64,000 nt of DNA from Candidatus Woesearchaeota archaeon (lineage in GTDB: Archaea > Nanobdellota > Nanobdellia > Woesearchaeales > JACPBV01): the NCBI GenBank assembly GCA_016180135.1, contig JACPBV010000007.1:41248-105247 (forward strand), read 5' to 3'. The first letter of the stretch is position 1; each line of letters begins with the position of its first letter. The notes under the pieces are model-generated. The model made no database searches. It worked only from the letters and a program-made list of their open reading frames with translations, and was not told the DNA's origin. A program made the translations under genes and the position numbers. Below, piece after piece: positions 5,631-51,983 of this stretch.

Positions 5631-5688
5631 CCGCGACGGACTCAACGTAGGCCCAGAAGCGTTTCTACCTAAGGAGGCTATACACCTA

Positions 5689-6360
5689 CTAATCATTTAA
5701 CCTTCTGATGGTCTCAATTAATTTGTTAAAAATCTTGTCGTCTATCTTTCCAAAAACGCCCTGGAGATTATCTTTATAACCCTGGCTGGTGGCATATTCT
5801 TTGAATTCCTTTAATTTATCACCAAGTCCATGGCTTTCCAGTTCTGTGTGTACCGTGTTGAGGTTAATGTCTCCGCCTAAAAGCATAAACACATCCCTAA
5901 AATCTGATTTCCTGCTTGCCGCCAGCTTCATGATAATGAGAGCCTCAGGGTTAGCTATCCTCACATCAATCCTGACCGGGTTCGCCTTGCCCCGTAATCT
6001 TCTTATTTTTGAATTTTCGAAAATCCATTCTGCTGAAAATCTCGAGTTTGTCTTTCTGTCAACAACATGCTTTATCAGAATGTCAAAGGGTACAGAATAA
6101 CCGCCTACTTTCTTGACAAGGCATGCAAAGTCTCCACAGTATGGAATATCTGGATCAGCTTCCTTTTTTTCATAGCCAGCCTGTTTCAGGGAACTTATCA
6201 CCTTCTTGGCATCTGCTTCATTCAGGACAACGATATCGCAGTCTACAGAAAATCTTGGCTGCGTATAGGCATTTACTGCATAGCCTCCAATAAGCACGAA
6301 ATTCAGCCCTTGCAATTTTTCCAACGTTGCCAAAATCTCCTTTTCCCGCAGCTCAAGCAT
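5689..6360 (-). CDS. nucleotidyltransferase, AbiEii-like (putative type IV toxin)
   Basis: N-terminal LNFVLIGGYAVNAYTQPRFSVDCDIVV fits the AbiEii/DUF1814 NTase motif (hhGG.A...RfS.D.D); overlaps the upstream gene by 1 nt. Confidence 0.5.
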   Translation of the reverse strand: MLELREKEILATLEKLQGLNFVLIGGYAVNAYTQPRFSVDCDIVVLNEADAKKVISSLKQAGYEKKEADPDIPYCGDFACLVKKVGGYSVPFDILIKHVVDRKTNSRFSAEWIFENSKIRRLRGKANPVRIDVRIANPEALIIMKLAASRKSDFRDVFMLLGGDINLNTVHTELESHGLGDKLKEFKEYATSQGYKDNLQGVFGKIDDKIFNKLIETIRRLND

Positions 6361-7001
6361 TACAGCGCCTCCCTGGCTTTTTGAACCAGTTCATTGCTAA
6401 CCTTTACCTTCAATTTGAATTTTTGCTTGACATACGCTAACGTGTATTCAAATAATGGGTTACCCTGGCAAAATCTGACGACTGTATCCAGGTCATCTAC
6501 CGGAAACCCATCATGCATAGTGTATGCTAATTTTTTCAACGGCTCTATGATGGCAAACTCCCCAATAAAGCTTCCTTCTCTGATGAAGAAGGGTATTCCT
6601 TCTTTTGAAAAAAAACTTTTCCAATATACAATATCCTCTTCTTTAACCTCGATGAAATAGGGGCTGCGCTCCCGGCTTCTTTGCAGGTAGGAAAAATCGG
6701 ACCATATTTCGGCAGCGCTCATCTTTGTGTAACAATACTCTTTTTTAGCATTCTTTAAGACTTCCGGGACTTTGAAATCAAATAATGACATGAATATCTC
6801 TTCAGGTTTGTAGCAGGCATAAGCCATTCTTGACTTCTTTTTTATCCATCCTGCATGTAATAAAACAGAAAAAATCTTTTTTCTCATTGCAGAGCTAACA
6901 GCCCAATTCAAGCAGTCCTGATTAAATTCTTCCTGAGAGCCGTATCTATTGTACATTAATCCATATGCCCTTAATGCATATTTTGGTAATTCCTGAGTCA
7001 T
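6360..7001 (-). CDS. putative AbiEi-like antitoxin/regulator (hypothetical)
   Basis: Immediately upstream of and overlapping the NTase gene; 213 aa; the N-terminal region could be a winged helix; assignment rests on genomic context only. Confidence 0.3.
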   Translation of the reverse strand: MTQELPKYALRAYGLMYNRYGSQEEFNQDCLNWAVSSAMRKKIFSVLLHAGWIKKKSRMAYACYKPEEIFMSLFDFKVPEVLKNAKKEYCYTKMSAAEIWSDFSYLQRSRERSPYFIEVKEEDIVYWKSFFSKEGIPFFIREGSFIGEFAIIEPLKKLAYTMHDGFPVDDLDTVVRFCQGNPLFEYTLAYVKQKFKLKVKVSNELVQKAREAL

Positions 7002-7160
7002 ATGGATCCCTATAAGGTAACTTATATTTAAATCTTGTGATTTTGGATACCCCTAAGGTAACTTTAATGTTGGCAAAAGGACAGAAAAGAAACAGAGGTA
7101 AGCCGCTGAGAAAAGCTAAGAAAAACGGCTGGTGGGGCAGGGATTGATTTATAGCAAACG

Positions 7161-7325
7161 AGGCTCCGTTCAAAGTATAGGTTAGCAGCCTAAAGTAAAA
7201 ATCACTTGCCTTCTGAATCCAGCTGACAGGGGGGTCGCCCCAAACGGGGGATGTCAGCAAACGGATAGAATATTTACGATTTTTAAGCTGCTAACCCGAG
7301 CGAAGCGAGATTTTGAACGGAGCCG
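7161..7325. ncRNA. candidate structured RNA or composite repeat: two long-range nested helices enclosing a GC hairpin
   Basis: GCTCCGTTCAAA (7163-7174) pairs with TTTGAACGGAGC (7312-7323); GGTTAGCAGC (7180-7189) pairs with GCTGCTAACC (7287-7296); inner hairpin CTGACAGGGGGGTCGCCCCAAACGGGGGATGTCAG at 7218-7258 has a homolog at 26440-26482. Confidence 0.3.
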
Positions 7326-7448
7326 GCAAACGACACAAGTATTTAGGCAAAATTATGCCGTTTGCTTACCCCTTAGAGGGGTACAAAAAACGTCTTTTCG
7401 TATTACGGACGGACCACAGCTGTATAATTATTTTTGTCCGTAAATATA
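7325..7448 (+). promoter_or_regulatory. conserved bipartite intergenic module, copy 1 (hairpin followed by T-tract, then palindrome-flanked AT-rich box)
   Basis: GCAAACGACAC...GCCGTTTGCT hairpin, then TATTACGGACGGACCACAGCTGTATAATTATTTTTGTCCGTAAATAT; homologous to 14249-14345 and 29341-29432; lies 60-80 nt upstream of the + strand gene at 7508. Confidence 0.45.
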
Positions 7449-7507
7449 ATTCTCAAATCACACCTTGACCATCAACTTTTAAATATACTCCTGCATTCTC
7501 TTCATCA

Positions 7508-7990
7508 ATGAAGGCGGGGGGGATTTTGCTTGTCGCTTTTTTTGGATTAGCATTTGCGCTGCTCATCTCGTTATATGCCTTGATTGAGATTGTGGAAGGG
7601 GGTTTGGCAGGAACTCAAAATGTTCCTAAACCTCAACAGGGGAACCTCAATATTTTTTTTGCGCCGCAAAAACTTTCCGGTATTGACCAGCTGAAGGCAC
7701 TGCAGCAGGAAACCGCTGAGCTCAGGAAAATGAACAACCTAGGGGAAGAGCGCGACCTTGAAGTCGGGAGATGCATCAGGAAGCTGACAAAGAACTGGAG
7801 GAGAAACATTGATGCAAGGTCTTTTGACGGAAAGATCGTGAGGAAGGACTCCAAAAGCAATGTCATCGAAGAATTTGATAAAGCCGTCAATCGCCCAGGG
7901 ACATCCATCTACGGTTTTGATGAAAGCCTCGACCGTGATTTCAGGAAGAGGCTGGAAAAGAAGTTTGATGATGGTGGGAGGGTTTGTTAA
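7508..7990 (+). CDS. hypothetical membrane-anchored protein (N-terminal TM helix)
   Basis: Hydrophobic N-terminus GGILLVAFFGLAFALLISLYALI followed by a charged soluble domain; no recognised family. Confidence 0.4.
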   Translation: MKAGGILLVAFFGLAFALLISLYALIEIVEGGLAGTQNVPKPQQGNLNIFFAPQKLSGIDQLKALQQETAELRKMNNLGEERDLEVGRCIRKLTKNWRRNIDARSFDGKIVRKDSKSNVIEEFDKAVNRPGTSIYGFDESLDRDFRKRLEKKFDDGGRVC

Positions 7991-8600: not shown

Positions 8601-9452
8601 CTAAACCTTGCTTTTAGCCATAAATGACAAGGGATATATTTTCTTGAAATGCGCAAAAGCTTCCTTAAGATTTTTCTGGCTGTCAAAAATTCCAAAGACG
8701 CTTGAGCCGCTCCCGGACAGGAGTGATTGCACAGCACCCTTCATTTGCAGGCCTTCCTTTATCTTTTTTAACTCGGGATATTTCGTGAAGGTGGCTGGCT
8801 CAAAGTCATTATGAAATTTTGGGCAGCTCAATTCCTGATGAGCATAAACTTCATCTTTGCTTGAGCCATCTTCTAACGCTTCACGGCATTTTTCTTTTCC
8901 GCAATATCTGTCAAATTCAGCATACGCTTCTTTTGTTGGAATGCTGAAGCCGGGGAAGACAATGAGAAAATCCATCTGAGGCAAAGATATCTTTTCAACA
9001 ATCTCGCCTTTGCCGCTGACGGCGCAGCTTCCCCCGACGATAAAGAACGGAACATCGGAGCCGATCGCCGCTGCAATCTTCAGCAGATCCTTTTCAGGAA
9101 GGTTGATGCCCCAAAGGGTGTTCAGGCCCATCAGGACTGCCGCTGCATCGCTTGAGCCACCGCCGAGGCCGGCTCCGATAGGAATGTTCTTCTTTAATGT
9201 TATCTGGGCGCCTTTGGGAATCTGGAACACTTCTTTCAGGAGCATCGCTGCACGATAGCAAAGATTATCTTCGTTCTCAAGCTCCTTAATGTTGCAGGTG
9301 AGGATGACTTTATCTTCAGCCAAAGGCTCGAGCGCAATCTCGTCAAAGAGAGTTACTTCCTGGAATATTGAGCTGATCTCGTGGAAGCCGTCATTTCTCC
9401 GCCGGAGGATATTCAGAGTAAGGTTTACTTTTGCGTGGGCTTTGAGCATCAT
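8601..9452 (-). CDS. ispE: GHMP kinase, 4-diphosphocytidyl-2-C-methyl-D-erythritol kinase (IspE)-like
   Basis: KVNLTLNILRRRNDGFHEISSIFQEVTLFDEIALE N-terminal IspE pattern; GHMP ATP-binding loop PIGAGLGGGSSDAAAVLMGLN. Confidence 0.7.
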   Translation of the reverse strand: MMLKAHAKVNLTLNILRRRNDGFHEISSIFQEVTLFDEIALEPLAEDKVILTCNIKELENEDNLCYRAAMLLKEVFQIPKGAQITLKKNIPIGAGLGGGSSDAAAVLMGLNTLWGINLPEKDLLKIAAAIGSDVPFFIVGGSCAVSGKGEIVEKISLPQMDFLIVFPGFSIPTKEAYAEFDRYCGKEKCREALEDGSSKDEVYAHQELSCPKFHNDFEPATFTKYPELKKIKEGLQMKGAVQSLLSGSGSSVFGIFDSQKNLKEAFAHFKKIYPLSFMAKSKV

Positions 9453-14425: not shown

Positions 14426-15598
14426 TCATTTTGCCTCTCTTGCATTTTCTCTTTTCTTCAGCAGCACAGCGCAAAAGCACTGGAGCCCTTCACCTTTCCC
14501 CCAGGCAGTCAATTCCTCGCCGGAAGTTGCTGCGATGCCGACCTGCTCTTCATTTAGCAGGCAGAGCCTTGCAATATTTGCTTTGATCCTGCCCTCATAG
14601 CTGAAAAGCCTCGGTTTCTTCCCTTCAACCATCACTGCGATATTGCTGACTGCAAAGCCTTTTTCTTTAGCCATGCCGAGGGCAACCTCAAGATAGACCC
14701 TGCTGGTCTTTATTCCCTGTCTGCAAAGGGGGTCTGCATAGAAGCCCAGGCTTTTGCCGCCTACAGCAGTGCTTATGGCGTTGAACAATGCATGGAGGAT
14801 GACATCACCGTCGGAATTTGCCTCCAAGCCATTTTCATTGGGAATTTCAACCCCTCCAAGGATCAGCCTTTTTGGATTGATGTCAAACTTGTGGGAATCC
14901 TGGCCGAAACCGATGCGGTCAGCCTGGATGACAAGCCTTGCATTCTCCATGTCAATCGGATTTGTTATCTTGAAATTTTCCTTTGAGCATTCGATAAGCT
15001 TTACCTTGGCTCCAATCTTCTCAATCAGCTCCATGTCGTCTGTGCCATAATATTGCTCGTTGTAGGCATGCACCATCGCCTGAGTCATCAGATCAAATCT
15101 TGCTGCCTGCGGTGTCTGCATATGCCATAAGCGGTTCCGGTCAAGGGTCTTTATGACAAATCCTTTATCATCTGCCTCTTTGACAGTGTCTGCTGCCCTG
15201 AATCCTGCCGCAGCAGCCCCGCTCTCCCCTGCTGCCATGATGACCCTTCCGATGAGATTATCGTCGATGAATGGGTTTGCGCCGTTATGGATAAGGACAA
15301 TATCCGAAGGCTCTGCCTTTATTGCTTTGATGCCTTCATAGGCGCTGTCCTGCCTGTTCTCGCCCCCCTTGACAAGCCCAGTTACCTTTGAAAGCTGTTT
15401 TTTGTCGATAAGATACTGTATTTCCCCAAGATTTTCCTCATTTGCGACAATGGTGATGGTGTCAATGAAACTGGAATCCTCAAAAGCCTGCAGGGTGTGC
15501 CCAAGAAGAGGCTCTTTGTTCAGGAGCATCAGCAGCTTATTGATGGGGGAGTGCATCCGTGTCCCTTTCCCTGCCGCAAGGATGATGGCGTGGTTCAT
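14426..15598 (-). CDS. ispDF: bifunctional IspD/IspF (MEP cytidylyltransferase / MEcPP synthase)
   Basis: N-terminal ILAAGKGTRM nucleotidyltransferase motif (IspD); C-terminal RIGFGQDSHKF...GGVEIPNENGLEANSDGDVILHALFNAISTAVG is the IspF metal-binding signature. Confidence 0.85.
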   Translation of the reverse strand: MNHAIILAAGKGTRMHSPINKLLMLLNKEPLLGHTLQAFEDSSFIDTITIVANEENLGEIQYLIDKKQLSKVTGLVKGGENRQDSAYEGIKAIKAEPSDIVLIHNGANPFIDDNLIGRVIMAAGESGAAAAGFRAADTVKEADDKGFVIKTLDRNRLWHMQTPQAARFDLMTQAMVHAYNEQYYGTDDMELIEKIGAKVKLIECSKENFKITNPIDMENARLVIQADRIGFGQDSHKFDINPKRLILGGVEIPNENGLEANSDGDVILHALFNAISTAVGGKSLGFYADPLCRQGIKTSRVYLEVALGMAKEKGFAVSNIAVMVEGKKPRLFSYEGRIKANIARLCLLNEEQVGIAATSGEELTAWGKGEGLQCFCAVLLKKRENAREAK

Positions 15599-19690: not shown

Positions 19691-20633
19691 GTTGGGGGAG
19701 ATAATTGTGCTAAACCATAATTATGTTACGGTAGTATCTCTTTGGCGGTTTATGGAGGTACCATGGCATACACCAAAGAGTTTAAACTTAGGATTATAAA
19801 ACATGTGAGAATGGGAATAACCCCCATTGAGCATATAGCGACGATACGGAAAATTCCAAAGCAAACCATCTACCGGTGGCTTAAATCTATAAGGCGATAC
19901 GGTGAATCTGGGCTTGAAAATGGATGTCCTGGTGCTAAACCGTTTCAAATTAATGTGACAGCCCAGCAGATGATACTTGTCCGCTGGAAAAAGCGCCCAA
20001 GAGGCTCAGCAAAGCTCTGGAGGGAGCTTAAAGAAGAAGGTTTTGGGATCTCTCAGCGACAGATTCAAAAAGCCTACAACCAACACGGTCTTAGAATGAA
20101 CAAGCGAGAAAGGCCCTCTCAGCTGAAATTCGTAAAATACGAATGGCCAAAGCCCAATATGCTCTGGCATACTGACTGGACAATCTGCCCTTTCACCGGT
20201 AACCACCTGATAGCATTCATTGACGACAATAGCCGATACATCGTCCATGCTGAGCTGTTCAACAGCCCAACTACAGAAAACACGCTCCTGGCTTTTCGGG
20301 CCGCAATAGCAAAGCATGGAAAGCCAGAAGCCATCCTTACGGACAATGGAACACAATTCACGCCAGCACGAGCATCAAAAGGCCCGTTTTCCCAATGGTG
20401 TGAAGAGCAGGGGATAAGACATATTATTGGGCGAGTCAATCACCCCCAAACGAATGGAAAAATAGAAAGATGGTTTGGGACGTACAAACAGGAGAAAAAA
20501 CAAGAAGAGCCGCTTGATTCGTTCGTTAAGTACTATAATGACGAACGCTTACATCAGGGAATTAACTATAAAGTACCATCTGAGAGGTACAAAAGTAACA
20601 TTAATGCGGTTTAGTAGAGTTGGGGGAGATAAT
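19691..20633 (+). mobile_element. IS481-family insertion sequence with 15-bp flanking direct repeats GTTGGGGGAGATAAT
   Basis: Direct repeats at 19691-19705 and 20619-20633; imperfect terminal inverted repeats TGTGCTAAACCATAATTATGTT and AACATTAATGCGGTTTAGTAGAG; single transposase ORF inside. Confidence 0.7.
19763..20614 (+). CDS. IS481-family DDE transposase (HTH plus rve integrase core)
   Basis: GGAGGT SD upstream of ATG at 19763; HTDWT...FIDDNSRY...LTDNGTQF...NHPQTNGKIERWFGTYK is a DDE (D,D,35E) integrase core; the ORF-track start at 19742 is a TTG. Confidence 0.8.
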   Translation: MAYTKEFKLRIIKHVRMGITPIEHIATIRKIPKQTIYRWLKSIRRYGESGLENGCPGAKPFQINVTAQQMILVRWKKRPRGSAKLWRELKEEGFGISQRQIQKAYNQHGLRMNKRERPSQLKFVKYEWPKPNMLWHTDWTICPFTGNHLIAFIDDNSRYIVHAELFNSPTTENTLLAFRAAIAKHGKPEAILTDNGTQFTPARASKGPFSQWCEEQGIRHIIGRVNHPQTNGKIERWFGTYKQEKKQEEPLDSFVKYYNDERLHQGINYKVPSERYKSNINAV

Positions 20634-37036: not shown

Positions 37037-39892
37037 TTAACTCATCGAAAGGTTAGTATCATCCAAGGAATAAACCCAATAACCCCACCCGGCGGTAAAG
37101 TTCTGAAGCCTGTTCATCGACGCATCTCTTCCCTTGACATAGGAGAACCAATCACCCCAACGGAAGGAATAGACTCTGGTGATTGGCGCTGAAACCATCG
37201 TTTCGTTGATACCTATGCTTTTTCCTGAGGGGTAACCGATAAGATTCCATCCCCGCTGGAGCTCTATTCCCTGGGATGTGTTAAAAGGAATTCCAGCAAT
37301 CGTCGAATTCATGTCCCTGATCCCATAGGCCCACAGCGCCATTGAGGTATTCACTTCCGAGTCAGGTGAAAGGTTTAGCCAGTGACCGTCTTTAAATGTA
37401 AGGACGGGCTTAATTGGGTCCATTGAGAGCCTGCTGCCGATGCGCCTCACCGTTGCAGGATTGAACCAAGAAGGAAATGAAACGAGGCTCCAGCCTTTGC
37501 TGATGAACATTTGGCAGTCATCTCCAAGGCCATTATTATCGGAATCAGGCTGGCCAGGATTATAAACCTCCGGGCAGTTGTCTGCAAGCCTCGGGAGGAA
37601 ATCCTTATCTAAATCCTGGAATTCCGAAACATTGATGGAAAGGACTGCCGAGCCATTTCCGCCAAGAATATCTATACGCTCAGCATCTATGAAATAAGGC
37701 AGGGTTATTGCGTCTTCTGTGAAGTTTACAGAGGCAAAATCTGATTCATTGGGAACAATAACCTGGGAATCATTCTGATCAAAAAATGAGCGGGGAGGGC
37801 TGAAGACTGGCTCAAGTGCGAGAGAAAAGTTTAATGAATAAAGAGTATCGTTAAGGGAGGAGAAGACAACTGCTCGGTAGGAGGAATTTTCATCATCAAT
37901 ATTTTCTGCCCTCCCCGATGCAAGTGAGACGTTCCTGACAGAAAGATTTCCTTCTTCAAAAATAATTTCAGCCACAAAGCTCAGGTTATATTCTGGGCTG
38001 CTTTCCTCAAATATCCCGAAAAAATTTTTTAGGGAAGCATTGATATCCTTTTCCAGCTCTATCCTGTGGACCTCGCCAAATTCTGCATCGGGCCGATAGG
38101 AGTTCCTCATCAATGAATTTTTATAGGGCCTATACCAGTTGCTATAGAAGCACTCGCTGCTGCAGGTGATGCCGGCCAGGGAAGCCCATTTGGGGCAGCC
38201 TGAAATATCGCAGTTGGGAACCTTGCCCGGATTTTTTGGATTTGCTCCGGCATTTTTGTATTCATCCATCAGTCCACCGAAGGAATGCCCGAACTCATGC
38301 ACCAATGTCCTTACAACCTCGAATTTGTTATCTCCTGCATTGGCGCAATCAAAAAATATTCCTCCATCTCCACGGCAGTTTCCGGGGTCCTGCCCGTCCT
38401 GCGGCCTTGCGATGTCCAGCGGAAATTCGCACATGCCGAGGTATTCGCATCCCGCAACGATGAAAGCCTCTTTTTTTCCGATACCTGAGTATGGCTTGAT
38501 ATAAGCATGAGGCCAGAATCTCGGCTCAAATGAAAGAAAGACCAGCTGATCCCACTGAGGGCAGGCTGATTTTCCCAGTTTCCTTGCCTGCTGCTCATAC
38601 TTTTCGAGGGTAAACGCCGGCAGGGAATTTACGGCCCAAAAATTAAACTTGCCCTTATTTTCTTTAAAAGGGCTGACTGACATAAGGCCGCCAAGGGAAC
38701 CATTGTAATCAACAAAATCGGCTGCAGTCTGAAACCATGAGCTGATATTGGGAAATCCGCTTCCTACAAATACAACATCAATCTTATCCCTGCTTCTCCC
38801 GTTGATGGTGAGCCCATTGCATATCGGGCAACCTTTCTTGCAGATCCATCCGCAGTCAATGCCCTCTTCGAAGCCGTTCTGGAACCCGTCATTGCAGCTT
38901 ACTGTAGCGCAAACGCCGTTGCTGCAGAACTTCCCTTTGCAGCCTGTGTTGGATGCGCATTTCTTTCCGTCGGGGCATGGGCCGCACACTCCTCCGCAAT
39001 CAACATCACTTTCTAAGCTGTCTTTAATACCATTATCGCACGACCCAATATCTTTCCTCAGCCAGGGGTCAAAATTCACTTTCCCTTTGGCGCCCAAGGA
39101 CTCTTCATCGTCATAGATGGCCTGCTCGATATATTCCCCTGAGTTAGTTCCCCAGAAGTTGTTGATGGCGGTGACCTGCGCCTTTGCATTGTTGAAAAGC
39201 CCAAAGGTTGTGCTGGAGGTGATTGAATTCTGAGAAATTATATTTGTCCCATTATCAACATAAATCCCAACTGAATTCCCCTGGAGAAAGTTGTCAGAAA
39301 AAGTATTTCCATAGGAACCCTGGCCCAAATGGGCGCCTCTAGTGTTGTTCCAGAAGCTATTCCTGAGGAGAGTATTGAATAATGAGCCACTTTCAACAAG
39401 GATGCCTCTCGAGTTGTTTGAAATGTTGTTGTTGATAATTTTATTGCCATCACTATCAAAAAGATTAATCCCGTAGCCGACATTGTTCTTGAATTCATTA
39501 TCATTCAGTGTGTTGTTGTTAAGATACTTAAGGGTAATCCCGTCTGCACCATTATTCAGGCCCTTATTTGAAGCAAATGAGCCGTTTCTCGCACGAAAAA
39601 TATAGCCCTGCGCCGCATTATTCCTTGAGATGGTATTCCTGATAATCGGCCTATCTGCAAGAAGCCCAAGGGATGTATCACTTGTAACGGCAATTCCATT
39701 TGAATAATTCTCAACAATGCAGTTCTTAATGAGTATATCATCATCATAAGAGCTTACAATCCCATAGCCTATCCGTTTTCCAACAAGGACTGTATCATCG
39801 CAGTCCAGCACAACCCCATGCGCATCAATCTCGATGCCGCCTGAAAGCTTATATGTTCCCGGGCAGAGCGTCGTGTTTTCGATGACAACCAT
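37037..39892 (-). CDS. beta-helix / Cys-rich / M64-like metallopeptidase surface protein, C-terminal major fragment (951 aa) of a disrupted paralog
   Basis: Parallel beta-helix repeats; Cys-rich CGGVCGPC...GCKGKFCSNGVC module; HEFGHSFGGLMDEYK zinc-peptidase motif; TSP3-like DNCPEVYNPGQPDSDNNGLGDDC; conserved C-terminal KGWSL...GWNLIGYP...FTAGWGYWV; no signal peptide of its own. Confidence 0.7.
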   Translation of the reverse strand: MVVIENTTLCPGTYKLSGGIEIDAHGVVLDCDDTVLVGKRIGYGIVSSYDDDILIKNCIVENYSNGIAVTSDTSLGLLADRPIIRNTISRNNAAQGYIFRARNGSFASNKGLNNGADGITLKYLNNNTLNDNEFKNNVGYGINLFDSDGNKIINNNISNNSRGILVESGSLFNTLLRNSFWNNTRGAHLGQGSYGNTFSDNFLQGNSVGIYVDNGTNIISQNSITSSTTFGLFNNAKAQVTAINNFWGTNSGEYIEQAIYDDEESLGAKGKVNFDPWLRKDIGSCDNGIKDSLESDVDCGGVCGPCPDGKKCASNTGCKGKFCSNGVCATVSCNDGFQNGFEEGIDCGWICKKGCPICNGLTINGRSRDKIDVVFVGSGFPNISSWFQTAADFVDYNGSLGGLMSVSPFKENKGKFNFWAVNSLPAFTLEKYEQQARKLGKSACPQWDQLVFLSFEPRFWPHAYIKPYSGIGKKEAFIVAGCEYLGMCEFPLDIARPQDGQDPGNCRGDGGIFFDCANAGDNKFEVVRTLVHEFGHSFGGLMDEYKNAGANPKNPGKVPNCDISGCPKWASLAGITCSSECFYSNWYRPYKNSLMRNSYRPDAEFGEVHRIELEKDINASLKNFFGIFEESSPEYNLSFVAEIIFEEGNLSVRNVSLASGRAENIDDENSSYRAVVFSSLNDTLYSLNFSLALEPVFSPPRSFFDQNDSQVIVPNESDFASVNFTEDAITLPYFIDAERIDILGGNGSAVLSINVSEFQDLDKDFLPRLADNCPEVYNPGQPDSDNNGLGDDCQMFISKGWSLVSFPSWFNPATVRRIGSRLSMDPIKPVLTFKDGHWLNLSPDSEVNTSMALWAYGIRDMNSTIAGIPFNTSQGIELQRGWNLIGYPSGKSIGINETMVSAPITRVYSFRWGDWFSYVKGRDASMNRLQNFTAGWGYWVYSLDDTNLSMS

Positions 39893-40488
39893 GCCTTGGA
39901 GTTGGTGTAGGAGACAGAAGAATCCTGGATGTCATTGTCCCAGATGTCATTAAAGCTTGCGGTGTCGAGGGAGATGCTGTTCTGGGAGTTGTTGTCTATA
40001 AGGTTTTTTGTTACGGCATTCCCGCTGCTCTGGTCTATGAGTATTCCGCTTTCGCCGTTCCCCACAAACTCATTGCCAACAAGAGTGTTGTTTCTCAGGT
40101 ATTTCAGCAAAATCCCATTTCTGCCGTTGTTTACTGCTTTGCTGCCTGTCACCGTGCCGTTGATGGTCCAGAGCTCAAACCCATTGCCTGCATTGCCCCT
40201 GGAAATAGTATTGCTGATTGTGGGGCGATCTGAAAAGATGCCAAACACCGTGTCACTTTCCATCACAATACCGTCAGAATAGTTCTCGATAATGCAGTCC
40301 CTTATAACGACATCATCATTAAACTGGCTCTGTATGCCGTCATTCAGCCTTGTCCCCCTGAGCGTTGATCCATCGCAGTCCAGCACAACCCCATGCGCAT
40401 CAATCTCGATGCCGCCTGAAAGCTTATATGTTCCCGGGCAGAGCGTCGTGTTTTCGATGACAACCATGCTCATTGTCCCAGATGTCAT
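39769..40488 (-). CDS. beta-helix repeat fragment (239 aa), middle piece of the disrupted paralog
   Basis: N-terminus MSMVVIENTTLCPGTYKLSGGIEIDAHGVVLDCD is near-identical to the N-terminus of the 951-aa ORF; ends with the NNSQNSISLDTASFNDIWDN junction cassette; overlaps both neighbours in different frames. Confidence 0.5.
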   Translation of the reverse strand: MTSGTMSMVVIENTTLCPGTYKLSGGIEIDAHGVVLDCDGSTLRGTRLNDGIQSQFNDDVVIRDCIIENYSDGIVMESDTVFGIFSDRPTISNTISRGNAGNGFELWTINGTVTGSKAVNNGRNGILLKYLRNNTLVGNEFVGNGESGILIDQSSGNAVTKNLIDNNSQNSISLDTASFNDIWDNDIQDSSVSYTNSKAWLSSKTRRSAREHISFQAASRLMRMGLCWTAMIQSLLENG

Positions 40489-41095
40489 TAAAGCTTGCGG
40501 TGTCGAGGGAGATGCTGTTCTGGGAGTTGTTCCTTATGGCGTTCCCTGTAATGATATTACCGCCAGCAGATTGGAGATCTATACCATTGCCACGGTTATT
40601 TGCGATGGTATTGCCCCGAACTGAATTATTGCCCCTGTCTATAATCAAGATACCACCGGCATTATTAAGAACAGAATTTCGCTGTATCGTGCTGTTGAGG
40701 GCCTCAAGGTAAATTCCGGCTGAGGATTGGTTCCTGATTATTGAGTCCTGAACAATAATCTTTGATGAGGCGGTAAACCTCGCTCCGGTTGAAAAGCTTT
40801 CAATGATGCAGTTTTTGAGAGTGATGCCTGACAGGCTGTTTCCAACAATCCCATTTCCAGAACCTTTCCCGGAAATCTTAAAGTCATTGCAGTCAAGCGT
40901 CAGAAAATTCCTTCCGATAGTGAAACAGGTGGATGTTCCAAAAAGACCCGAGCCCAGAGTGTAGTTTGTGATTAAGGTATCGCCGCAGGCGCATGTTTTA
41001 ATGCCATTGCCGCAATTTGCGGCATAGGTAAAGCCTGAAGATATCACTACAACAATAATAACAGATAATATCAAGATTATTTTCGTAATATGCAT
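40424..41095 (-). CDS. signal-peptide plus beta-helix fragment (223 aa), 5' piece of the disrupted paralog
   Basis: N-terminal signal peptide/TM MHITKIILILSVIIVVVISSGFTYA; beta-helix repeats; ends in the same ISLDTASFNDIWDN cassette, then a frame change. Confidence 0.5.
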   Translation of the reverse strand: MHITKIILILSVIIVVVISSGFTYAANCGNGIKTCACGDTLITNYTLGSGLFGTSTCFTIGRNFLTLDCNDFKISGKGSGNGIVGNSLSGITLKNCIIESFSTGARFTASSKIIVQDSIIRNQSSAGIYLEALNSTIQRNSVLNNAGGILIIDRGNNSVRGNTIANNRGNGIDLQSAGGNIITGNAIRNNSQNSISLDTASFNDIWDNEHGCHRKHDALPGNI

Positions 41096-41717: not shown

Positions 41718-44700
41718 TTACTTCCCAACCATCCAGCTTGATGCATTTTCTGAAAACACCCAATACCCAAATCCCGGCGTGAAATTTTGCAGCGTATTCT
41801 GGGTGGAATTTCTCCCTTTTTGAAAAGACAGCCACCTTCCGGCTTGAAAGGAAAAAACCTTTGCGGCTGAAACATTCTCAAGCGACTCATTGACATTGCT
41901 GCTTCGGCCCGAAGGATACCCTACCAGATTCCAGCCCTTTTGGATGGAAATGTTAGCAGGTGAATCAAAGGCGGCCCCTGCGAGAGAGAAATTCCCCCCC
42001 TCAAGAGCGTTTATGAAAAATCCAGATGCCCCATCTAATGAAGAGCTGTTTGTGACTCTTATCCATCTGCCGCCAAAATATGCAATAGGCGGTTTTGCCC
42101 AGTTTATGGGAATTCCTTCCATTCCGCCGGCGATTGTAGCGTTATTTGGCTTCGACGGAAAGGAAATAAGGCTCCAGCCTTTACTCAACTGGATCTGGCA
42201 GGCATCACCTATCTCATTGCCGTCGGCATCATCCTGCCCGCTGTTTCCGGCCATTGGGCAGTTGTCGGCGATTGCCGGCAGCATATCCCCATCCATGTCG
42301 TGGTAAGCAGAAATATTGAAAGAAGTTATGAGGGCATTGCCGGCATTGGCAATCTCCACCCTTTCACCGTCGGGATAATAGGGAAGAGGGATAGCCTCTG
42401 TCGTTTCGTTTACCAAGACTGCCGCAGATTTATCAGGGGTTGAGTTCTGGGTCCCATTGGCGTCAAACCAGTCAAGCGGAGGGGCATAGGCAGCCTCAAG
42501 ATTAAAGCTAAAATTGACTGAGCTCAAAGTCCGGTTGGAAAAGGAAATGACTCTGATAATATACTGCCCGTCTTTGGCATTTGCCGGGGATGAGCTGCCA
42601 GAGGAAAGGGAAACCGCTGCGATTGAGGCATTTCCCATGCTGTAATTTGCGATGATAAGGAAGCTGAGATTATAGCTTTCCGGCTCCAATGACAAAATTC
42701 CGAAGGGGCCTTTGGCTGATGCATTAATGTCTTTTTCAAGCTCTCTCCTGTTTACTTCACCGTAAGATGATGCAAGGTCGTATTGGTTTCTCATGATAGT
42801 GTTATCATAGGCGCGATACCAGTTAGTATAACCGCAGCCCGGAAAGCATCCTGTCGAATTCAATGATGACCATTTGCTGCAATCGCTGCCATCGCAATTG
42901 GGGATCCTGAAGGGAGGAAAGGCTGTTGAACTCCCGAAGTCATATTCATCATAAAGCCCGCCAAATGAATGGCCAAACTCGTGGAGGAATGTCCTCCTGA
43001 GCTGCGCCCTGGTGTTGCCGTAGACTGAGCATTCAGGCTTTGAGCCTGAGCCCTGGCAGCGAGTTGGATCCTCCCCTTTTGAAGGGTTGGCAATATCGAG
43101 AGGAAAGCTGCACGCCCCAACATATTCGCAGCCAGCCATCAGGAAGGCATATTTCCCTCCTTCGCCTGAAAATGGCCTTGAATATGCGTGGGGGATAAAT
43201 CTAGGCTTGACTGACAAAAGAACCATCTGGTCTATCTGCGGGCAATGGGAAGCAGCTGCTGTCTTTGCCTGGGCCTCATAGGGCTGGTGTCCGCTGCCAT
43301 CATCCGAGAAATTCTCCAGCTCAGTGACAGCCCAGAAATTGAACCTGGCTTTCTTTGAGGCAAAAGGCTCTTCCGACATCAGCCCGTCCTGCACACCATC
43401 GTAGTCAATGAACTCTTCAACAGCCTGAATCCACTGATTGGCATCAGAAAATCCGCTCCCGACGAAAACGACATCAATCTTATTTTCCCCATCTCCATTA
43501 ACTTTGACTCCATGGCACGTTCCGCAGGGATTAAGGCATGCCCATCCGCAGTCAATCCCTTCCTCAGCGCCGTTCTTTTCGCTGTCGAAGCAGCTCGGGG
43601 CTGCGCATTTTCCATTTCTGGAGCAGAACCCAGTCCTGCAGTCGCTGCCTGCGTTGCATGCCTGATCCTTGCTGCATACCCTGCAGCTTCCGCCGCAATC
43701 TATATCCCCTTCCTGCTCGTCTTTGTAGCCGTTGTTGCAGGAGCCAACAGCATCCAGCAGCCAGCTGCTAAAGTTGACTTCCCCCCTTATTCCCCCTGAC
43801 TCTTCGTCGTCATAGATGGCAGCGTCAATCTCAGCCGGAGAAAGAGAATTCCACCAGTTGTGTGTTGCGTTAAGGCTTAACCCCTGCTTATTGTAAAGGT
43901 TATAGATGCTGTTGCCAAATATATTATTAGCTAACACATTAATCATACGCTCCTCAGTGTATATTCCATATCGGTTATTAGCGATAGTATTCAGTTTTAT
44001 CCAACTGTTGGGAGATTGGCCCCAAACGCTGATCCCATACGTGTTGTTGATGATAAGGTTGTTTAAGACGGTTGTATTATGGGTGCGGTCATCCAGAACA
44101 ATGCCTAACGTGTTATTGAAAACGGAATTCCCAACAAGTGTGTTATTATTGTTTACAGTTATGAATCCAATCTCTAATACATTAATTCCAATTGTGTAGT
44201 TTTTTACAATGCAGTTTGAAATTCTGCTTGCATTGTTTCTATAGCTTATAAAAACAGATATTCCGGCGCCGCTCCCATTGCCCGATAAGACTGCATTTTG
44301 GCAGTCAAGGCCAGACCCTTCGACACGTATCCCATCAGGAAGCGAATATTGTCCGGGGATTACCATGACTGAAGAATAAATACTCAACCCATTGTAAAGA
44401 TAAATTCCTTCGCAGGTTGGCCCTGTCGCATTATCACCATAGCGGTTGCCGTATCCCTCAGAGCAGTAGATATTGGAGAAGTAGTAGGGGTAATATATTC
44501 TGCTGTGGATGGTATTGTTGACAATGGTATTATTGCTTGCATACTTGACGAGGATGTCGTTGGTATTGTTAAAAAAGGTATTGCCCGTTATGGTATTGTT
44601 GGTGAGGGGCCCGAGGGTAGATCCTGAAGGCAGCAAAGTTCCATTTGAGTAATTCCCGATATTGCAGTTTGCCAGCTTCGCATGACTGGGAGAATTGAGA

Positions 44701-46331
44701 ATGACACCGGTGCCCTGGCCGCTTCCCAAGAGAGTTGCATTATTGCAGTCAAGCGTTCTGTTGCGGAAGAGCTCAATCCCATTGGGAAGCTTAAATATCC
44801 TATTGAGGAGCTTGATATTTGAATTAACTTTTAATCCGTCATAGGGGTAAAAGCCGTCGCACGTCGGCCCCGTCGCATCACCAATATACATATTTCCAGT
44901 GCCGTTGATGCAGTACTGGTTATCATCTGAAAACAGGTAGTAAATCCTGCTGGTGATGAGGTTGTCCCAAATCTTATTGAAGCCGACATTTAACTGCCCC
45001 GGGTTCCATCGCTGTTTCAGGAAGATATCGTTTGTGTTGTTATAAAAAGAATTGCCCGTAATGATATTATTCTTTGGGTATGGCCCCATGAAAATTCCAT
45101 TGGAATAATTTCTAAAGTTGCAGTTGATGATTTTTATATTATTAGCCAGGGTAGTCCAGTCACTGTCGATGGTGATGCCGTTACCGGTGCCATCCCCTAT
45201 GAGGGTGGCATTTCTGCAGTCAAGGGTAAGGTTACCGTCAAAAAAAGATATCCCTTTCGGGATTTTATAAACTCCCGGGAGGACGACAGGGCTGGAGAAA
45301 AGGACAAGGCTATCATAGAGATACATCCCGCCGCACGTCGGCCCAGTTGCGTTCCCAATATAATTATTTCCAACCCCGTCAACGCAGTAAATTTGGGTCG
45401 AGATGGAAGTGTAATACACTGAGCTGGTGATGGTGTTGTCCCACACCCTGTTATAATTATTTCCCGAACTGATGTAAACATCCCTGTTGTTGCTGCGGAA
45501 GCTGTTGTTGGTGATGTTGTTGAACGATGCCCCGCTAGTGTAATAATCAACATTAATCCCAATGCTGTAATTCTCAATATTACAATTCTTTATGGTGTTA
45601 TAGTTTGCCCCCCATCCTGCATATCCGAAAAGCTTGATTCCATTATAGGCTCCCTTGCCAATGAGTGTTGCATTATTGCATTCAACCGTTATCCCGTCCG
45701 TCCACACCGTCATCCCGGAGGGAAGATAATATGTCCCTGGCAAAAGGCTGATATCACTGAGAATTCCCATCCCATTGTAGGGATAAAATCCCTTGCACGT
45801 CGGCCCAGTTGCGTTCCCAATATAATCATTGCCAACACCATCAACACAGTAATTGTTTTCATTTGAATACTGATAATAGATTCTTGAGTGGATAGTATTT
45901 CTCCATATTTTATTTCGCTTAACCCATGTATTAATGAAAATGTCATTGGTGTTGTTTATCAAATAATTATCGGTGATATTGTTATACTGGGTTTTCCCGT
46001 CGCCGTCAACGAGATGGATACCATCGCCATAATTCTTCACGATGCAGTTCTTTATGGTGCTTTGCTCGACTTTGTTCTGGAAGCCCCCATTTACCCTTAT
46101 TCCCGTCCTGTTTCCCACCCCTAAAAGTGTTGATTGGTTGCAGTCAAGGGTGATTCCGGACTTCTTGACGGTAATTCCGTTGGGCAAAAAATAGGTGCCC
46201 GGAGTGAACGTTGTCCTTACCGTAACCGTGCAGCCGTCGGTCGGCACAGAGCCGCATTCAGCCCCATAGCTTATTCCTGCGGCAAGGAGAAAAAGCAATG
46301 CAGAAAATAAAAATCCCCCTGTCTTCCCCAT
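41718..46331 (-). CDS. giant secreted sequon-rich parallel beta-helix protein with Cys-rich modules, M64-like HExxH metallopeptidase domain and TSP3-like repeat (1537 aa)
   Basis: Signal peptide MGKTGGFLFSALLFLLAAGISYGA; at least four internal repeats of about 150 aa (TLDCN.ATLIG ... NKIWDN.I.SRIYY ... YC.DG.GN.YIG.ATGPTC.G.YPY); CGGSCRVCSKDQACNAGSDCRTGFCSRNGKC; HEFGHSFGGLYDEYD; DNCPMAGNSGQDDADGNEIGDACQ; dozens of N-x-S/T sequons. Confidence 0.8.
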   Translation of the reverse strand: MGKTGGFLFSALLFLLAAGISYGAECGSVPTDGCTVTVRTTFTPGTYFLPNGITVKKSGITLDCNQSTLLGVGNRTGIRVNGGFQNKVEQSTIKNCIVKNYGDGIHLVDGDGKTQYNNITDNYLINNTNDIFINTWVKRNKIWRNTIHSRIYYQYSNENNYCVDGVGNDYIGNATGPTCKGFYPYNGMGILSDISLLPGTYYLPSGMTVWTDGITVECNNATLIGKGAYNGIKLFGYAGWGANYNTIKNCNIENYSIGINVDYYTSGASFNNITNNSFRSNNRDVYISSGNNYNRVWDNTITSSVYYTSISTQIYCVDGVGNNYIGNATGPTCGGMYLYDSLVLFSSPVVLPGVYKIPKGISFFDGNLTLDCRNATLIGDGTGNGITIDSDWTTLANNIKIINCNFRNYSNGIFMGPYPKNNIITGNSFYNNTNDIFLKQRWNPGQLNVGFNKIWDNLITSRIYYLFSDDNQYCINGTGNMYIGDATGPTCDGFYPYDGLKVNSNIKLLNRIFKLPNGIELFRNRTLDCNNATLLGSGQGTGVILNSPSHAKLANCNIGNYSNGTLLPSGSTLGPLTNNTITGNTFFNNTNDILVKYASNNTIVNNTIHSRIYYPYYFSNIYCSEGYGNRYGDNATGPTCEGIYLYNGLSIYSSVMVIPGQYSLPDGIRVEGSGLDCQNAVLSGNGSGAGISVFISYRNNASRISNCIVKNYTIGINVLEIGFITVNNNNTLVGNSVFNNTLGIVLDDRTHNTTVLNNLIINNTYGISVWGQSPNSWIKLNTIANNRYGIYTEERMINVLANNIFGNSIYNLYNKQGLSLNATHNWWNSLSPAEIDAAIYDDEESGGIRGEVNFSSWLLDAVGSCNNGYKDEQEGDIDCGGSCRVCSKDQACNAGSDCRTGFCSRNGKCAAPSCFDSEKNGAEEGIDCGWACLNPCGTCHGVKVNGDGENKIDVVFVGSGFSDANQWIQAVEEFIDYDGVQDGLMSEEPFASKKARFNFWAVTELENFSDDGSGHQPYEAQAKTAAASHCPQIDQMVLLSVKPRFIPHAYSRPFSGEGGKYAFLMAGCEYVGACSFPLDIANPSKGEDPTRCQGSGSKPECSVYGNTRAQLRRTFLHEFGHSFGGLYDEYDFGSSTAFPPFRIPNCDGSDCSKWSSLNSTGCFPGCGYTNWYRAYDNTIMRNQYDLASSYGEVNRRELEKDINASAKGPFGILSLEPESYNLSFLIIANYSMGNASIAAVSLSSGSSSPANAKDGQYIIRVISFSNRTLSSVNFSFNLEAAYAPPLDWFDANGTQNSTPDKSAAVLVNETTEAIPLPYYPDGERVEIANAGNALITSFNISAYHDMDGDMLPAIADNCPMAGNSGQDDADGNEIGDACQIQLSKGWSLISFPSKPNNATIAGGMEGIPINWAKPPIAYFGGRWIRVTNSSSLDGASGFFINALEGGNFSLAGAAFDSPANISIQKGWNLVGYPSGRSSNVNESLENVSAAKVFSFQAGRWLSFQKGRNSTQNTLQNFTPGFGYWVFSENASSWMVGK

Positions 46332-49400: not shown

Positions 49401-50675
49401 TCACTCATACCTCAATGCCTCAACAGGATTCTGGCGCGCTGCCTGAAGGGATGGCAAAAGGCCGGAAGCTGCTCCGATAACGGAGGAAAACAGCAGGCAG
49501 CCGGCAATGAGCCACCAGGGAAAGACTGGCTGCAATAAGCCAAGCCCTGCATTCTTTGCGATAGAGCCTCCGAGGCTGGCTATGCTCATGCCCATCAGGA
49601 CGCCAAAAGCGCCGCCGACAAAGCCTAAAAAACCTGCTTCGACCATAAATATCTGGACGATATCTTTTTCTTTTGAGCCGACTGCCTTGATGATGCCGAT
49701 TTCTTTTGTCCTTTCAAGCACCGCAGTATACATCGTGTTCATGATATTGATCGCTGCGATAAGGACTGAAATCAGGGCAATGACTACCAAAACTCCGTTG
49801 AGGACATTGATGACTGTCCCAAAGGTCTCGACTATCTGCTCAAAAGTCTGGACATGGAAATCTTCTTCGCCTTTTTCCTGGCCTTTGCGCTTCCTGAAGC
49901 GTTCAGAAACAGCATCAGCAGCTGAGCGGGCATCGGCTCCTTTTTCCGTCCTCAGCAGGACCATATCAAAAACATCTCCACGGGAAAATATTTCCTGAAA
50001 CCCTTCTTTGGAAAGATAGGCGTTGCTGTCATCCTGCGGATTCCCTATGCTTTTGTAGATGCCGACAACATCAACCTTTTTTCCGTTGAGCAGGATGCTG
50101 TCTCCGGCATTGATCGCTTTGCTAAAAACCTTATCGGGGATGCTGTAGCTGAATCCCAATGCAGCCTTAAGCTTGTCCCCTTTCTTGATGTCTCTGCCGG
50201 ACAATAACTCAAGGCTGAAGACCTGCTGGACAAGCCTCCGCTCCGGCCCGGTAGGGGAGCCTGTGGCATAGACATATTTTGGCTTTGCGCCCTCTTTGAG
50301 CTTCACTTCCGCCTGCGCAAACATCAGCCCTGCCGATTCGTCGATGCTGTGCGTTTTTGCAAGAATCTCCAGATCTTCTTTTGAAAAGGAAACACCTCCT
50401 GCCCCGGGCGGCGCAAATCCTTTTGCCTGGACGATAAGCTTATCGCTCCCCATCTTCTCTGCGGTTTCCTCAAGATAGTGCTGCAGCCCCTGCCCAAAGC
50501 TGACGAGGGTGACGATGGCAGAAACTCCTATGAAAATTGAGATGATGCTCAGGAACGTCCTCATCTTCCGCATCCAAAGGTTGTTCAGCGCATACAGGAA
50601 AAGCTCTTTCCTCATCTTCCATCCCTCAGTGTGTGGGCAATCCGAAAAAAAACCATCTTCATCTTCCGCATCCAA
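49401..50675 (-). CDS. ABC transporter permease, FtsX/MacB-like (4 TM with large extracytoplasmic domain)
   Basis: N-terminal TM, large periplasmic domain, C-terminal FtsX-like TM bundle (INIMNTMYTAVLERTKEIGIIKAVG). Confidence 0.75.
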   Translation of the reverse strand: MDAEDEDGFFSDCPHTEGWKMRKELFLYALNNLWMRKMRTFLSIISIFIGVSAIVTLVSFGQGLQHYLEETAEKMGSDKLIVQAKGFAPPGAGGVSFSKEDLEILAKTHSIDESAGLMFAQAEVKLKEGAKPKYVYATGSPTGPERRLVQQVFSLELLSGRDIKKGDKLKAALGFSYSIPDKVFSKAINAGDSILLNGKKVDVVGIYKSIGNPQDDSNAYLSKEGFQEIFSRGDVFDMVLLRTEKGADARSAADAVSERFRKRKGQEKGEEDFHVQTFEQIVETFGTVINVLNGVLVVIALISVLIAAINIMNTMYTAVLERTKEIGIIKAVGSKEKDIVQIFMVEAGFLGFVGGAFGVLMGMSIASLGGSIAKNAGLGLLQPVFPWWLIAGCLLFSSVIGAASGLLPSLQAARQNPVEALRYE

Positions 50676-50759
50676 AGATTGTTCAGCGCATACAGGAAAA
50701 GCTCTTTCCTCATCTTGATTACCTCATAATAAACGTGATAAAACGAAAAACCCCTATAT

Positions 50760-51983
50760 TCATTTTGCATACCTCAGGGCATCGACAGGGTGCATCTTCG
50801 CTGCCCTCAGCGCCGGGGCAACTCCAAAAATGATGCCAAGCAAAAATGAAAAAGCCAGCGAGCCGAGGAGCAGGAGGGGGCTGAACCTTGCCTGAAAAAG
50901 ATCAGTCCCGACAATGCTTCTCCCTAATGCCGCAAGCATGAGCGTGCCAATAACGCCCAAAGCAATCCCAATAATCCCTCCGAGGAGGCCAAGGATACCA
51001 GACTCAAGAAAAAACAGCGAGAAGATAGATTGGGTGCCTGCGCCGATAGCTTTCAGGATCCCGATCTCTTTTGTCCTTTCAAGCACCGCAGTATACATCG
51101 TGTTCATGATGCCGATGCCTCCAACAACAAGCGAGATTCCTGCGATAAGGAACACGAAGATGTTCACACCAACAAGGACATTGTCAATCTGGGAAATTGC
51201 CGAAGCTGCGGTCTCGACAGAAAAATCCTCTTCGCCTTCCTTCACATTACGCTTTTTCCGCAGGAGCTTTTCAATAGAGCCTTTTACAGCATCAACGTCT
51301 TTCAGATTTGCTGCCCTTACGCCTATAAAATCGTATTGGTCCTTTGGGAGGCCCATCAGCTCCCGGTGCATATCCTCATTGAGCAGGATTGCGCCGTCAA
51401 TCACAAAGCTTCCCTTCTTCTTGAGGATTCCGGCGACGGTAAAAGGCTTTCCCTGGATGGTGGCAGAAGCTCCCGGCACAATCTCTTTGTCAAAAGTCTC
51501 CTTATCAGCAAGGCTTGCGCCGATCACCGCCAGCGATCTGTCACCGTCTTTCAGCATCCGCCCTTTTGCGGCGGAATAGCCAATAAGTTCCTCAATCTCT
51601 TTTCTTTCCCTCCCGTCGGGCATGCTCACTGCCATAGCAAATGAGGTTTTGCCATTAAAGGTCATTTTCACCTGCCTGAGATTCCTTCCGGCAGCCATCC
51701 TCACACCATTGAGCTTTGCGATCTGGTTTATGTTATCGGTTGTCAATGGATTTGAAGGTGTGGATGAGCCTGGCGGGCCGAATGCGCTTCCCACATTGAC
51801 CCTGATGAGATCAGCGCCCAAGAATCCGAACTGGGACGAGACAGCATACCGCAGCCCTTCTCCCAAAGATATCAACGACACCACTGCCGCTATGCCGATG
51901 AAAATGCCAAGCATAGTCAGGTAGCTTCTCAGTTTCCTGCTTTTAAGATTAGAGAATGAAAACTTCAGATAATCTGCTATCAT
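50760..51983 (-). CDS. ABC transporter permease, FtsX/MacB-like (paralog)
   Basis: Same architecture; IGIMNTMYTAVLERTKEIGILKAIG. Confidence 0.8.
   Translation of the reverse strand: MIADYLKFSFSNLKSRKLRSYLTMLGIFIGIAAVVSLISLGEGLRYAVSSQFGFLGADLIRVNVGSAFGPPGSSTPSNPLTTDNINQIAKLNGVRMAAGRNLRQVKMTFNGKTSFAMAVSMPDGRERKEIEELIGYSAAKGRMLKDGDRSLAVIGASLADKETFDKEIVPGASATIQGKPFTVAGILKKKGSFVIDGAILLNEDMHRELMGLPKDQYDFIGVRAANLKDVDAVKGSIEKLLRKKRNVKEGEEDFSVETAASAISQIDNVLVGVNIFVFLIAGISLVVGGIGIMNTMYTAVLERTKEIGILKAIGAGTQSIFSLFFLESGILGLLGGIIGIALGVIGTLMLAALGRSIVGTDLFQARFSPLLLLGSLAFSFLLGIIFGVAPALRAAKMHPVDALRYAK

Follow-up and report, generated by a model that had tools for sequence, protein, structure and literature searches.

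A probable young pseudogene of a beta-helix/M64-like surface protein in a Woesearchaeote, with its frame-breaking junction present twice

In a 64,000-nt stretch of DNA from a Candidatus Woesearchaeota metagenome-assembled genome (MAG), hereafter the window, to which all coordinates refer, a gene for a large beta-helix/M64-like protein is split into three overlapping open reading frames (ORFs) on the minus strand (37037-41095). Is this locus a broken gene, a gene that is still read by unusual means, a variable locus or an error of the assembly? We concluded that it is probably the second member of a tandem gene pair encoding a large secreted surface protein of DPANN archaea, inactivated very recently, in which the junction that bears the lesion was copied by gene conversion. 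The MAG contig is 113,705 bp long and carries the deposited proteins MBI2139613.1, from the split locus, and MBI2139616.1, from the neighbouring gene. Archaeal housekeeping genes (for A-type ATPase subunits, ProRS, TFIIE-alpha and AglB) surround the locus.

ORF A (40424..41095, 223 aa) comprises a signal peptide and the first beta-helix module. ORF B (39769..40488, 239 aa) comprises the second module, and ORF C (37037..39892, 951 aa, NCBI MBI2139613.1) contains the third module followed by a Cys-rich region, an M64-like metalloprotease, a TSP3-like repeat and a C-terminal domain. ORFs A and B overlap by 65 nt (40424-40488) and ORFs B and C by 124 nt (39769-39892). A six-frame scan placed A and C in the same frame and B in another (order 1/2/1), and together with the ORF list it agreed with the lengths, the overlaps and the different frames given by an earlier, sequence-only reading of the locus. 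The stop codon of ORF A lies 15 codons past the frame break at the first junction, and the last approx. 41 codons of ORF B are the duplicated cassette described below and the start of C, read out of frame. The distance from the ATG of A to the stop codon of C is 4059 nt, a multiple of three, and two single-base edits (one G added at junction 2, one base deleted at junction 1) yield one ORF of 1352 aa.

A hydrophobic N-terminus was found in ORF A only. The maximal Kyte-Doolittle value over 12 residues was 3.84 for A, 1.15 for B and 1.28 for C, and 2.67 for the intact neighbour, which bears out the earlier statement that only the first ORF has a signal peptide. The ATG of ORF A is preceded by the Shine-Dalgarno-like sequence 'ccggggg'. 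Between ORF C (MBI2139613) and a 130-aa gene (MBI2139615) the deposited proteins have a single accession (MBI2139614), and ORFs A and B as read here had no match in the NCBI protein collection; the deposited annotation thus handles 37037-41095 otherwise than the plain three-ORF reading. Exact look-ups of ORF A, ORF B (three starts) and ORF C in a contig index gave no match. A single-sequence AlphaFold model of ORF B reached a predicted local distance difference test (pLDDT) score of 34.6 and was unusable, and no structural inference was drawn from it.

Just upstream of the split locus lies an intact tandem paralog (41718..46331, minus strand, 1537 aa, MBI2139616.1, HYU14_01720) with a signal peptide, five beta-helix modules, four linkers and the same C-terminal architecture. 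The conceptual 1352-aa protein joined from A, B and C aligned with it end to end at 39% identity. Pfam domains were accepted when the profile score was above the gathering score. Beta-helix/NosD domains (PF13229, PF05048) were found in all three ORFs, PF13229 scoring 57.3 bits in A, 55.5 in B and 70.3 in C (cutoff 25.9). Peptidase_M64 (PF09471) was a weak, partial match in ORF C (30.7 bits) and in the paralog (31.5 bits; cutoff 26). The whole Pfam set of A, B and C, including the TSP3-like repeat of C, was also present in the 1537-aa ORF, in accordance with the description of the locus as a beta-helix/M64 paralog.

Each junction of the split locus carries the same cassette, built from two pieces. 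R1 (62 nt), coding for the residues that close a module, NNSQNSISLDTASFNDIWDN, is found at 40470..40531 and 39932..39993; R2 (99 nt), coding for those that open the next one, MVVIENTTLCPGTYKLSGGIEIDAHGVVLDCD, is found at 40371..40469 and 39796..39894, all on the minus strand. A repeat search, a pairwise alignment and an exact pattern search all showed the two copies of each piece to be 100% identical, and 100 shuffles gave 0 matches for either piece. At junction 1 the pieces are contiguous (161 nt), while at junction 2 they stand 37 nt apart (39895..39931, minus strand), a segment present at junction 2 only; junction 1 equals junction 2 minus exactly 37 nt. The sequence-only reading had described this recurrence, the 37-nt difference and both cassette peptides at each junction as we found them. 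Its limits for the second copy (39797-39992) were one base short at each end, the copy extending over 39796-39993.

The linker at junction 1 (40468..40471, minus strand) is GAGC, 4 nt between AAT (Asn) and ATG, and the passage from A to B needs a +1 shift. At junction 2 the linker measures 41 nt, the frame breaks at AAG|GC (39893..39897, minus strand) and the passage from B to C needs a -1 shift. The codon before the ATG in the frame of C is GGC, giving G-M as in the NGM and GGM of the paralog, and the break was therefore placed in AAG|GGC; with one G added there, the reading continues in frame as ...YTNSKGMVVIENTT. The sequences spanning the junctions are AATGAGCATGG for junction 1 and CCAAGGCATGG for junction 2. 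The product of the 37-nt segment, (D)IQDSSVSYTNSK, is similar to the TITSSVYYTSIST-type residues found after IWDN at the junctions of the paralog. Because of this resemblance the segment is, as judged from the encoded residues, ancestral, and junction 1 carries the deletion.

Outside the cassette the similarity ended abruptly, the immediate flanks of the two copies having a nucleotide identity of 45-58% (37% at the lowest) and the module bodies one of approx. 56%. R1 is the last rung of one module and R2 the beginning of the following one, each of them in register with the corresponding positions of the paralog, and the cassette stands in place of the homologous segment. The motif YCxxGxGNxYxxxATGPTC was present at each of the paralog's four module junctions and absent from every frame of the split locus; at junction 2 the break coincides exactly with the place from which approx. 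30 residues, including this Cys-rich linker motif, are missing. The modules of the paralog repeat with a period of 444-474 nt, and the linker DNA is their best-conserved part, 64-84% identical between modules and never 100%. As a separate observation on the paralog, contigs of the Logan assemblies of Sequence Read Archive (SRA) runs also break inside it, one starting at 45362 (L081) and two at 43554 (L082, L083), for which short internal repeats or strain variation are possible origins.

With the C-terminal 710 aa as query a family of DPANN proteins was found, in Pacearchaeota, Iainarchaeum, Nanoarchaeota and others. Each relative with a beta-helix N-terminus is encoded by one ORF, of 994-1200 aa, and most have an N-terminal signal or anchor. 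The zinc-binding motif HEXXH is intact in ORF C as HEFGH (residues 532-536), and HEFGHSFGGL.DEY (residues 532-545 of ORF C) was invariant across 11 family members. Among solved structures, 3p1v alone was recovered as a relative (E=0.0016). ORF C contains a predicted M64-like zinc metalloprotease that is very distant from the characterised M64 enzymes. The cassette DNA was absent from the genome contig and metagenome contig collections, and a 90-aa junction peptide used as query gave no candidates. In a locus of an Aenigmatarchaeota MAG (L008, 5674-7969) an M64-like ORF (5674..7275) and an ORF with the next domain (7259..7969) overlap by 17 nt; since the second of these ORFs bears a signal peptide of its own, the family architecture is here split naturally. 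This locus had been considered as a second frameshifted homologue and was rejected as such, being a natural two-gene arrangement.

These data favour the first of the options named by the sequence-only reading, a decaying paralog. Compared with the single-ORF paralog, with which it is colinear, and with the single-ORF relatives, the frame is interrupted at two places, and elements needed for function are lost, B and C being without a signal peptide and the linker motif being gone at both junctions. The ancestor would have been a multi-module gene like its neighbour, in which a deletion of 3n+1 nt removed the conserved Cys-rich linker from one junction, leaving a 41-nt linker and a broken frame. 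Intragenic gene conversion between tandem modules would then have placed a copy of this lesion-bearing junction (approx. 198 nt), in register, at the neighbouring junction, and the copy at junction 1 would have lost a further 37 nt, leaving the 4-nt linker. Since both lesions lie in one recently duplicated segment, one of them was probably copied and did not arise independently. Translation from the sole start that bears a signal peptide would end at 223 aa, only fragment A would be exported, and no secreted protein with modules B and C, including the predicted protease, would be made any longer. Presumably the function is supplied by the intact 1537-aa neighbour. As the cassette copies are perfectly identical and the 4 kb hold no other lesion, the inactivation would be very recent.

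Several points weigh against a young pseudogene. Beyond the two junction lesions the whole 4 kb is open and HEFGH is intact, so that decay is not otherwise visible. The 4-nt and 41-nt linkers were not seen in an independent assembly, and under this model it is a 1-in-2 coincidence that A and C have the same frame. In protein collections, a GTDB genome profile scan and Joint Genome Institute (JGI) metagenomes no orthologue was found in which the split might be kept or lost, the relatives having at most 42% identity.

It is unlikely, in our estimate, that the real gene is one continuous ORF and that the two breaks are consensus errors, or a mis-join across the 62- and 99-nt repeats, in a short-read assembly. 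Such an artefact would fit the source, a short-read MAG, and the position of both lesions inside perfect repeats, where assemblers are weakest; only two single-base changes restore the ORF, and the junction linkers are without confirmation in a second assembly. We followed seven threadings of the repeat graph, in which A or B was joined to B or C directly or by the 37-nt linker, B being kept, left out or doubled, and all of them stopped at 223 or 262 aa. Every threading is out of frame because the linkers measure 4 and 41 nt, neither a multiple of three. An intact gene can therefore not lie hidden behind a collapse or a mis-threading; this would take two separate, independent indel errors, and neither site lies in a long homopolymer. 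Junction k-mers that are absent from the reads cannot be invented by a de Bruijn assembler; an assembler error that moved the G from junction 2 to junction 1 was rejected, as it needs such k-mers. The window contains no Ns, and its other scanned genes look intact.

The largest k used by MEGAHIT under default settings is 141. The longest exact repeat, 99 nt, is shorter than such a 141-mer, an argument that applies only if the MAG stems from the groundwater study PMC7906910, in which MEGAHIT was run with defaults. Logan contigs from SRR4343430, SRR12113431, SRR12113422, SRR12113432 and SRR12113383 were 100% identical to the window, and the 130-aa neighbour and AtpD proteins were also found in Logan assemblies of SRA runs. 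With k=31, in SRR4343430 and SRR12113431, two contigs from the A side ended at 40502 and one from the C side at 39825, which is exactly 30 nt (k-1) into R1 and R2, respectively. As contigs of k=31 are expected to break in this manner at a true repeat, the duplication is real in independent read sets treated with a different assembler. Guessed products of the Logan junction and B-body unitigs, repaired in-frame versions included, gave 0 matches in the protein collection, the queries being guesses only. A repeat collapse is unlikely, and the assembly collapse that the sequence-only reading had listed as an option lost ground, with every path through the repeat graph out of frame and the contigs matching the flanks perfectly up to the repeats.

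We regard it as very unlikely that the gene is still expressed, either by ribosomal shifts of +1 at the first junction and -1 at the second or by starts of B and C at internal ATGs. The breaks do fall exactly at domain boundaries, so that each ORF holds whole modules, B and C begin with an ATG inside the cassette, A and C share a frame with a total length divisible by three, and the 4 kb carry no further lesion. Against recoding, the junction sequences AAT GAG CAT GGT and TCC AAG GCA TGG contain no slippery heptamer of the type X XXY YYZ and no shift-prone stop context, and shifts in opposite directions would have to be driven by the same downstream sequence. The cassette RNA folded no better than shuffled sequences (z of +0.54, +0.72 and +1.53), and an Rfam search gave no match. 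The internal ATGs are without the GGAGG/GGGGG motif that is seen before many genes of the window, ORF A among them, and a ribosome would have passed the next ATG by 42 and 121 nt when it reached the stop codon, a distance too great for termination-reinitiation. Neither B nor C has a signal peptide, though their domains are Cys-rich, sequon-rich and of the extracellular type, unlike the naturally separate downstream gene of the Aenigmatarchaeota locus, which bears its own. An RNA intron or bypass that removes B was also rejected: an in-frame join of A to C needs 576 nt to be taken out, one more than the spacing of the repeats, and there is no inverted repeat for a bulge-helix-bulge.

Somewhat less probable still is a variable locus, with the cassettes as sites of recombination through which beta-helix modules are added, removed or swapped, and the 37-nt indel as a toggle of the frame in the population. 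Variation is plausible for the surface proteins of DPANN archaea that are attached to hosts, perfect direct repeats of 62 and 99 nt stand 538 and 575 nt apart within a surface-protein gene, and the window has other local duplications and identical patches, in MacB-like paralogs. Recombination between the repeats would delete 575 or 538 nt and give A joined directly to C, or A joined to C through the 37-nt segment, both out of frame, and thus no ON state can be reached from the present elements. No simple-sequence tract was detected (Tandem Repeats Finder, nothing in 39700-40600), and inverted repeats on which an invertase could act are absent. With 100% identity between their copies, the repeats are not a template/variable pair of a diversity-generating retroelement (DGR). 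Among the approx. 34 of the 56 window ORFs of at least 150 aa that were scanned there was no reverse transcriptase, and the sole gene of recombinase type was an insertion sequence (IS) integrase 17 kb away. Contigs from several runs were identical. The recombination-driven variable locus of the sequence-only reading therefore received no positive support, its recombinants remaining frameshifted.

The least probable version is a working recombination or indel switch, with the contig as its dominant OFF state, in which linker variants (e.g. 3, 39 or 42 nt) and the gain or loss of modules toggle or resize a surface protease; if true, it would give a host-attached Woesearchaeote with a variable surface protein.

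If the locus is a recent pseudogene, the value of the observation is mostly one of annotation, as MBI2139613.1, deposited as a stand-alone protein, would be the tail of a broken 1352-aa gene that includes A and B. It would also be a small, clear case in which gene conversion carried a frameshift from one repeat-protein module to another in a reduced DPANN genome, and it would mean that the beta-helix/M64-like surface-protein family of this genome is turning over. The locus would gain greater weight, as a case of surface-protein switching, only if population reads held in-frame variants.

Other features of the window were recorded alongside. At 50606-50726 (minus strand) the first approx. 19 codons and the ribosome-binding region of a MacB/FtsX-like permease gene recur 98 nt upstream as a duplicate of 71 nt with 92% identity. 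This creates an upstream ORF of 33 codons (ATG at 50713), and its TGA and the real ATG (50615) overlap as ATGA. Two tandem MacB-like permease paralogs with 35% protein identity share an exact DNA patch of 44 nt (49704-49747 and 51069-51112) over the motif IMNTMYTAVLERTKEIGI, which may be a micro gene-conversion. The IS-type transposase gene (19742-20614, approx. 17 kb from the split locus), with helix-turn-helix (HTH) and rve integrase-core domains, was the only mobile-element gene among the scanned ORFs. A fused IspD/IspF gene (14426-15598) and a 283-aa GHMP kinase, possibly IspE (8601-9452), are genes of the bacterial-type methylerythritol phosphate (MEP) isoprenoid pathway, unexpected for an archaeon. 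A gene for an AbiEii-type nucleotidyltransferase toxin (5689..6360) adjoins an unannotated 213-aa partner ORF (6360..7001) with a one-base overlap, probably a type IV toxin-antitoxin pair.

Programmed ribosomal frameshifting is known from bacteria (prfB, +1; dnaX, -1) and from archaea (fucA1 of Saccharolobus solfataricus, -1). The split locus shares with such genes the overlapping ORFs that join into one homologous protein after single-nucleotide shifts; it differs in having no slippery sequence, no stimulatory structure and two opposite shifts on the same sequence, and in having no close orthologue, among the collections searched, that could share the frameshift. Contingency genes of the Neisseria and Haemophilus type are phase-variable by slipped-strand mispairing. 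Here, too, a surface-protein gene is turned off by a frameshift, but there is no homopolymer or short tandem repeat, and the indels are one of 1 nt in a GG context and one of 37 nt without microhomology. Of the defining features that were tested for programmed frameshift sites, for slipped-strand contingency loci and for DGR targets, the locus shows none.

As in a frameshifted pseudogene beside an intact tandem paralog, the locus is colinear with the paralog and with single-ORF relatives, small deletions break its frame and its downstream parts lose the signal peptide; unlike in an ordinary one, both lesions lie in one recently duplicated segment and no other decay is visible. As in the concerted evolution of surface-protein repeat modules, a tract of approx. 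160-200 nt is 100% identical, in register and sharp-edged between modules that are otherwise approx. 50% identical. The difference is that the homogenised tract would here have spread a defect, since it carries the frameshift, a mechanism that we infer from the pattern. With the Peptidase M64 and NosD-type beta-helix proteins of DPANN archaea the locus has in common the beta-helix/NosD domains of A, B and C, the M64 domain of C with HEFGH and the downstream DEY conserved, and Cys-rich and TSP3-like parts that match those of relatives, while it is very distant from the characterised M64 enzymes and its multi-module beta-helix N-terminus is specific to this archaeal group. The split locus is a known kind of thing, a frameshifted paralog of the DPANN beta-helix/M64-like surface-protein family with a gene-conversion signature.

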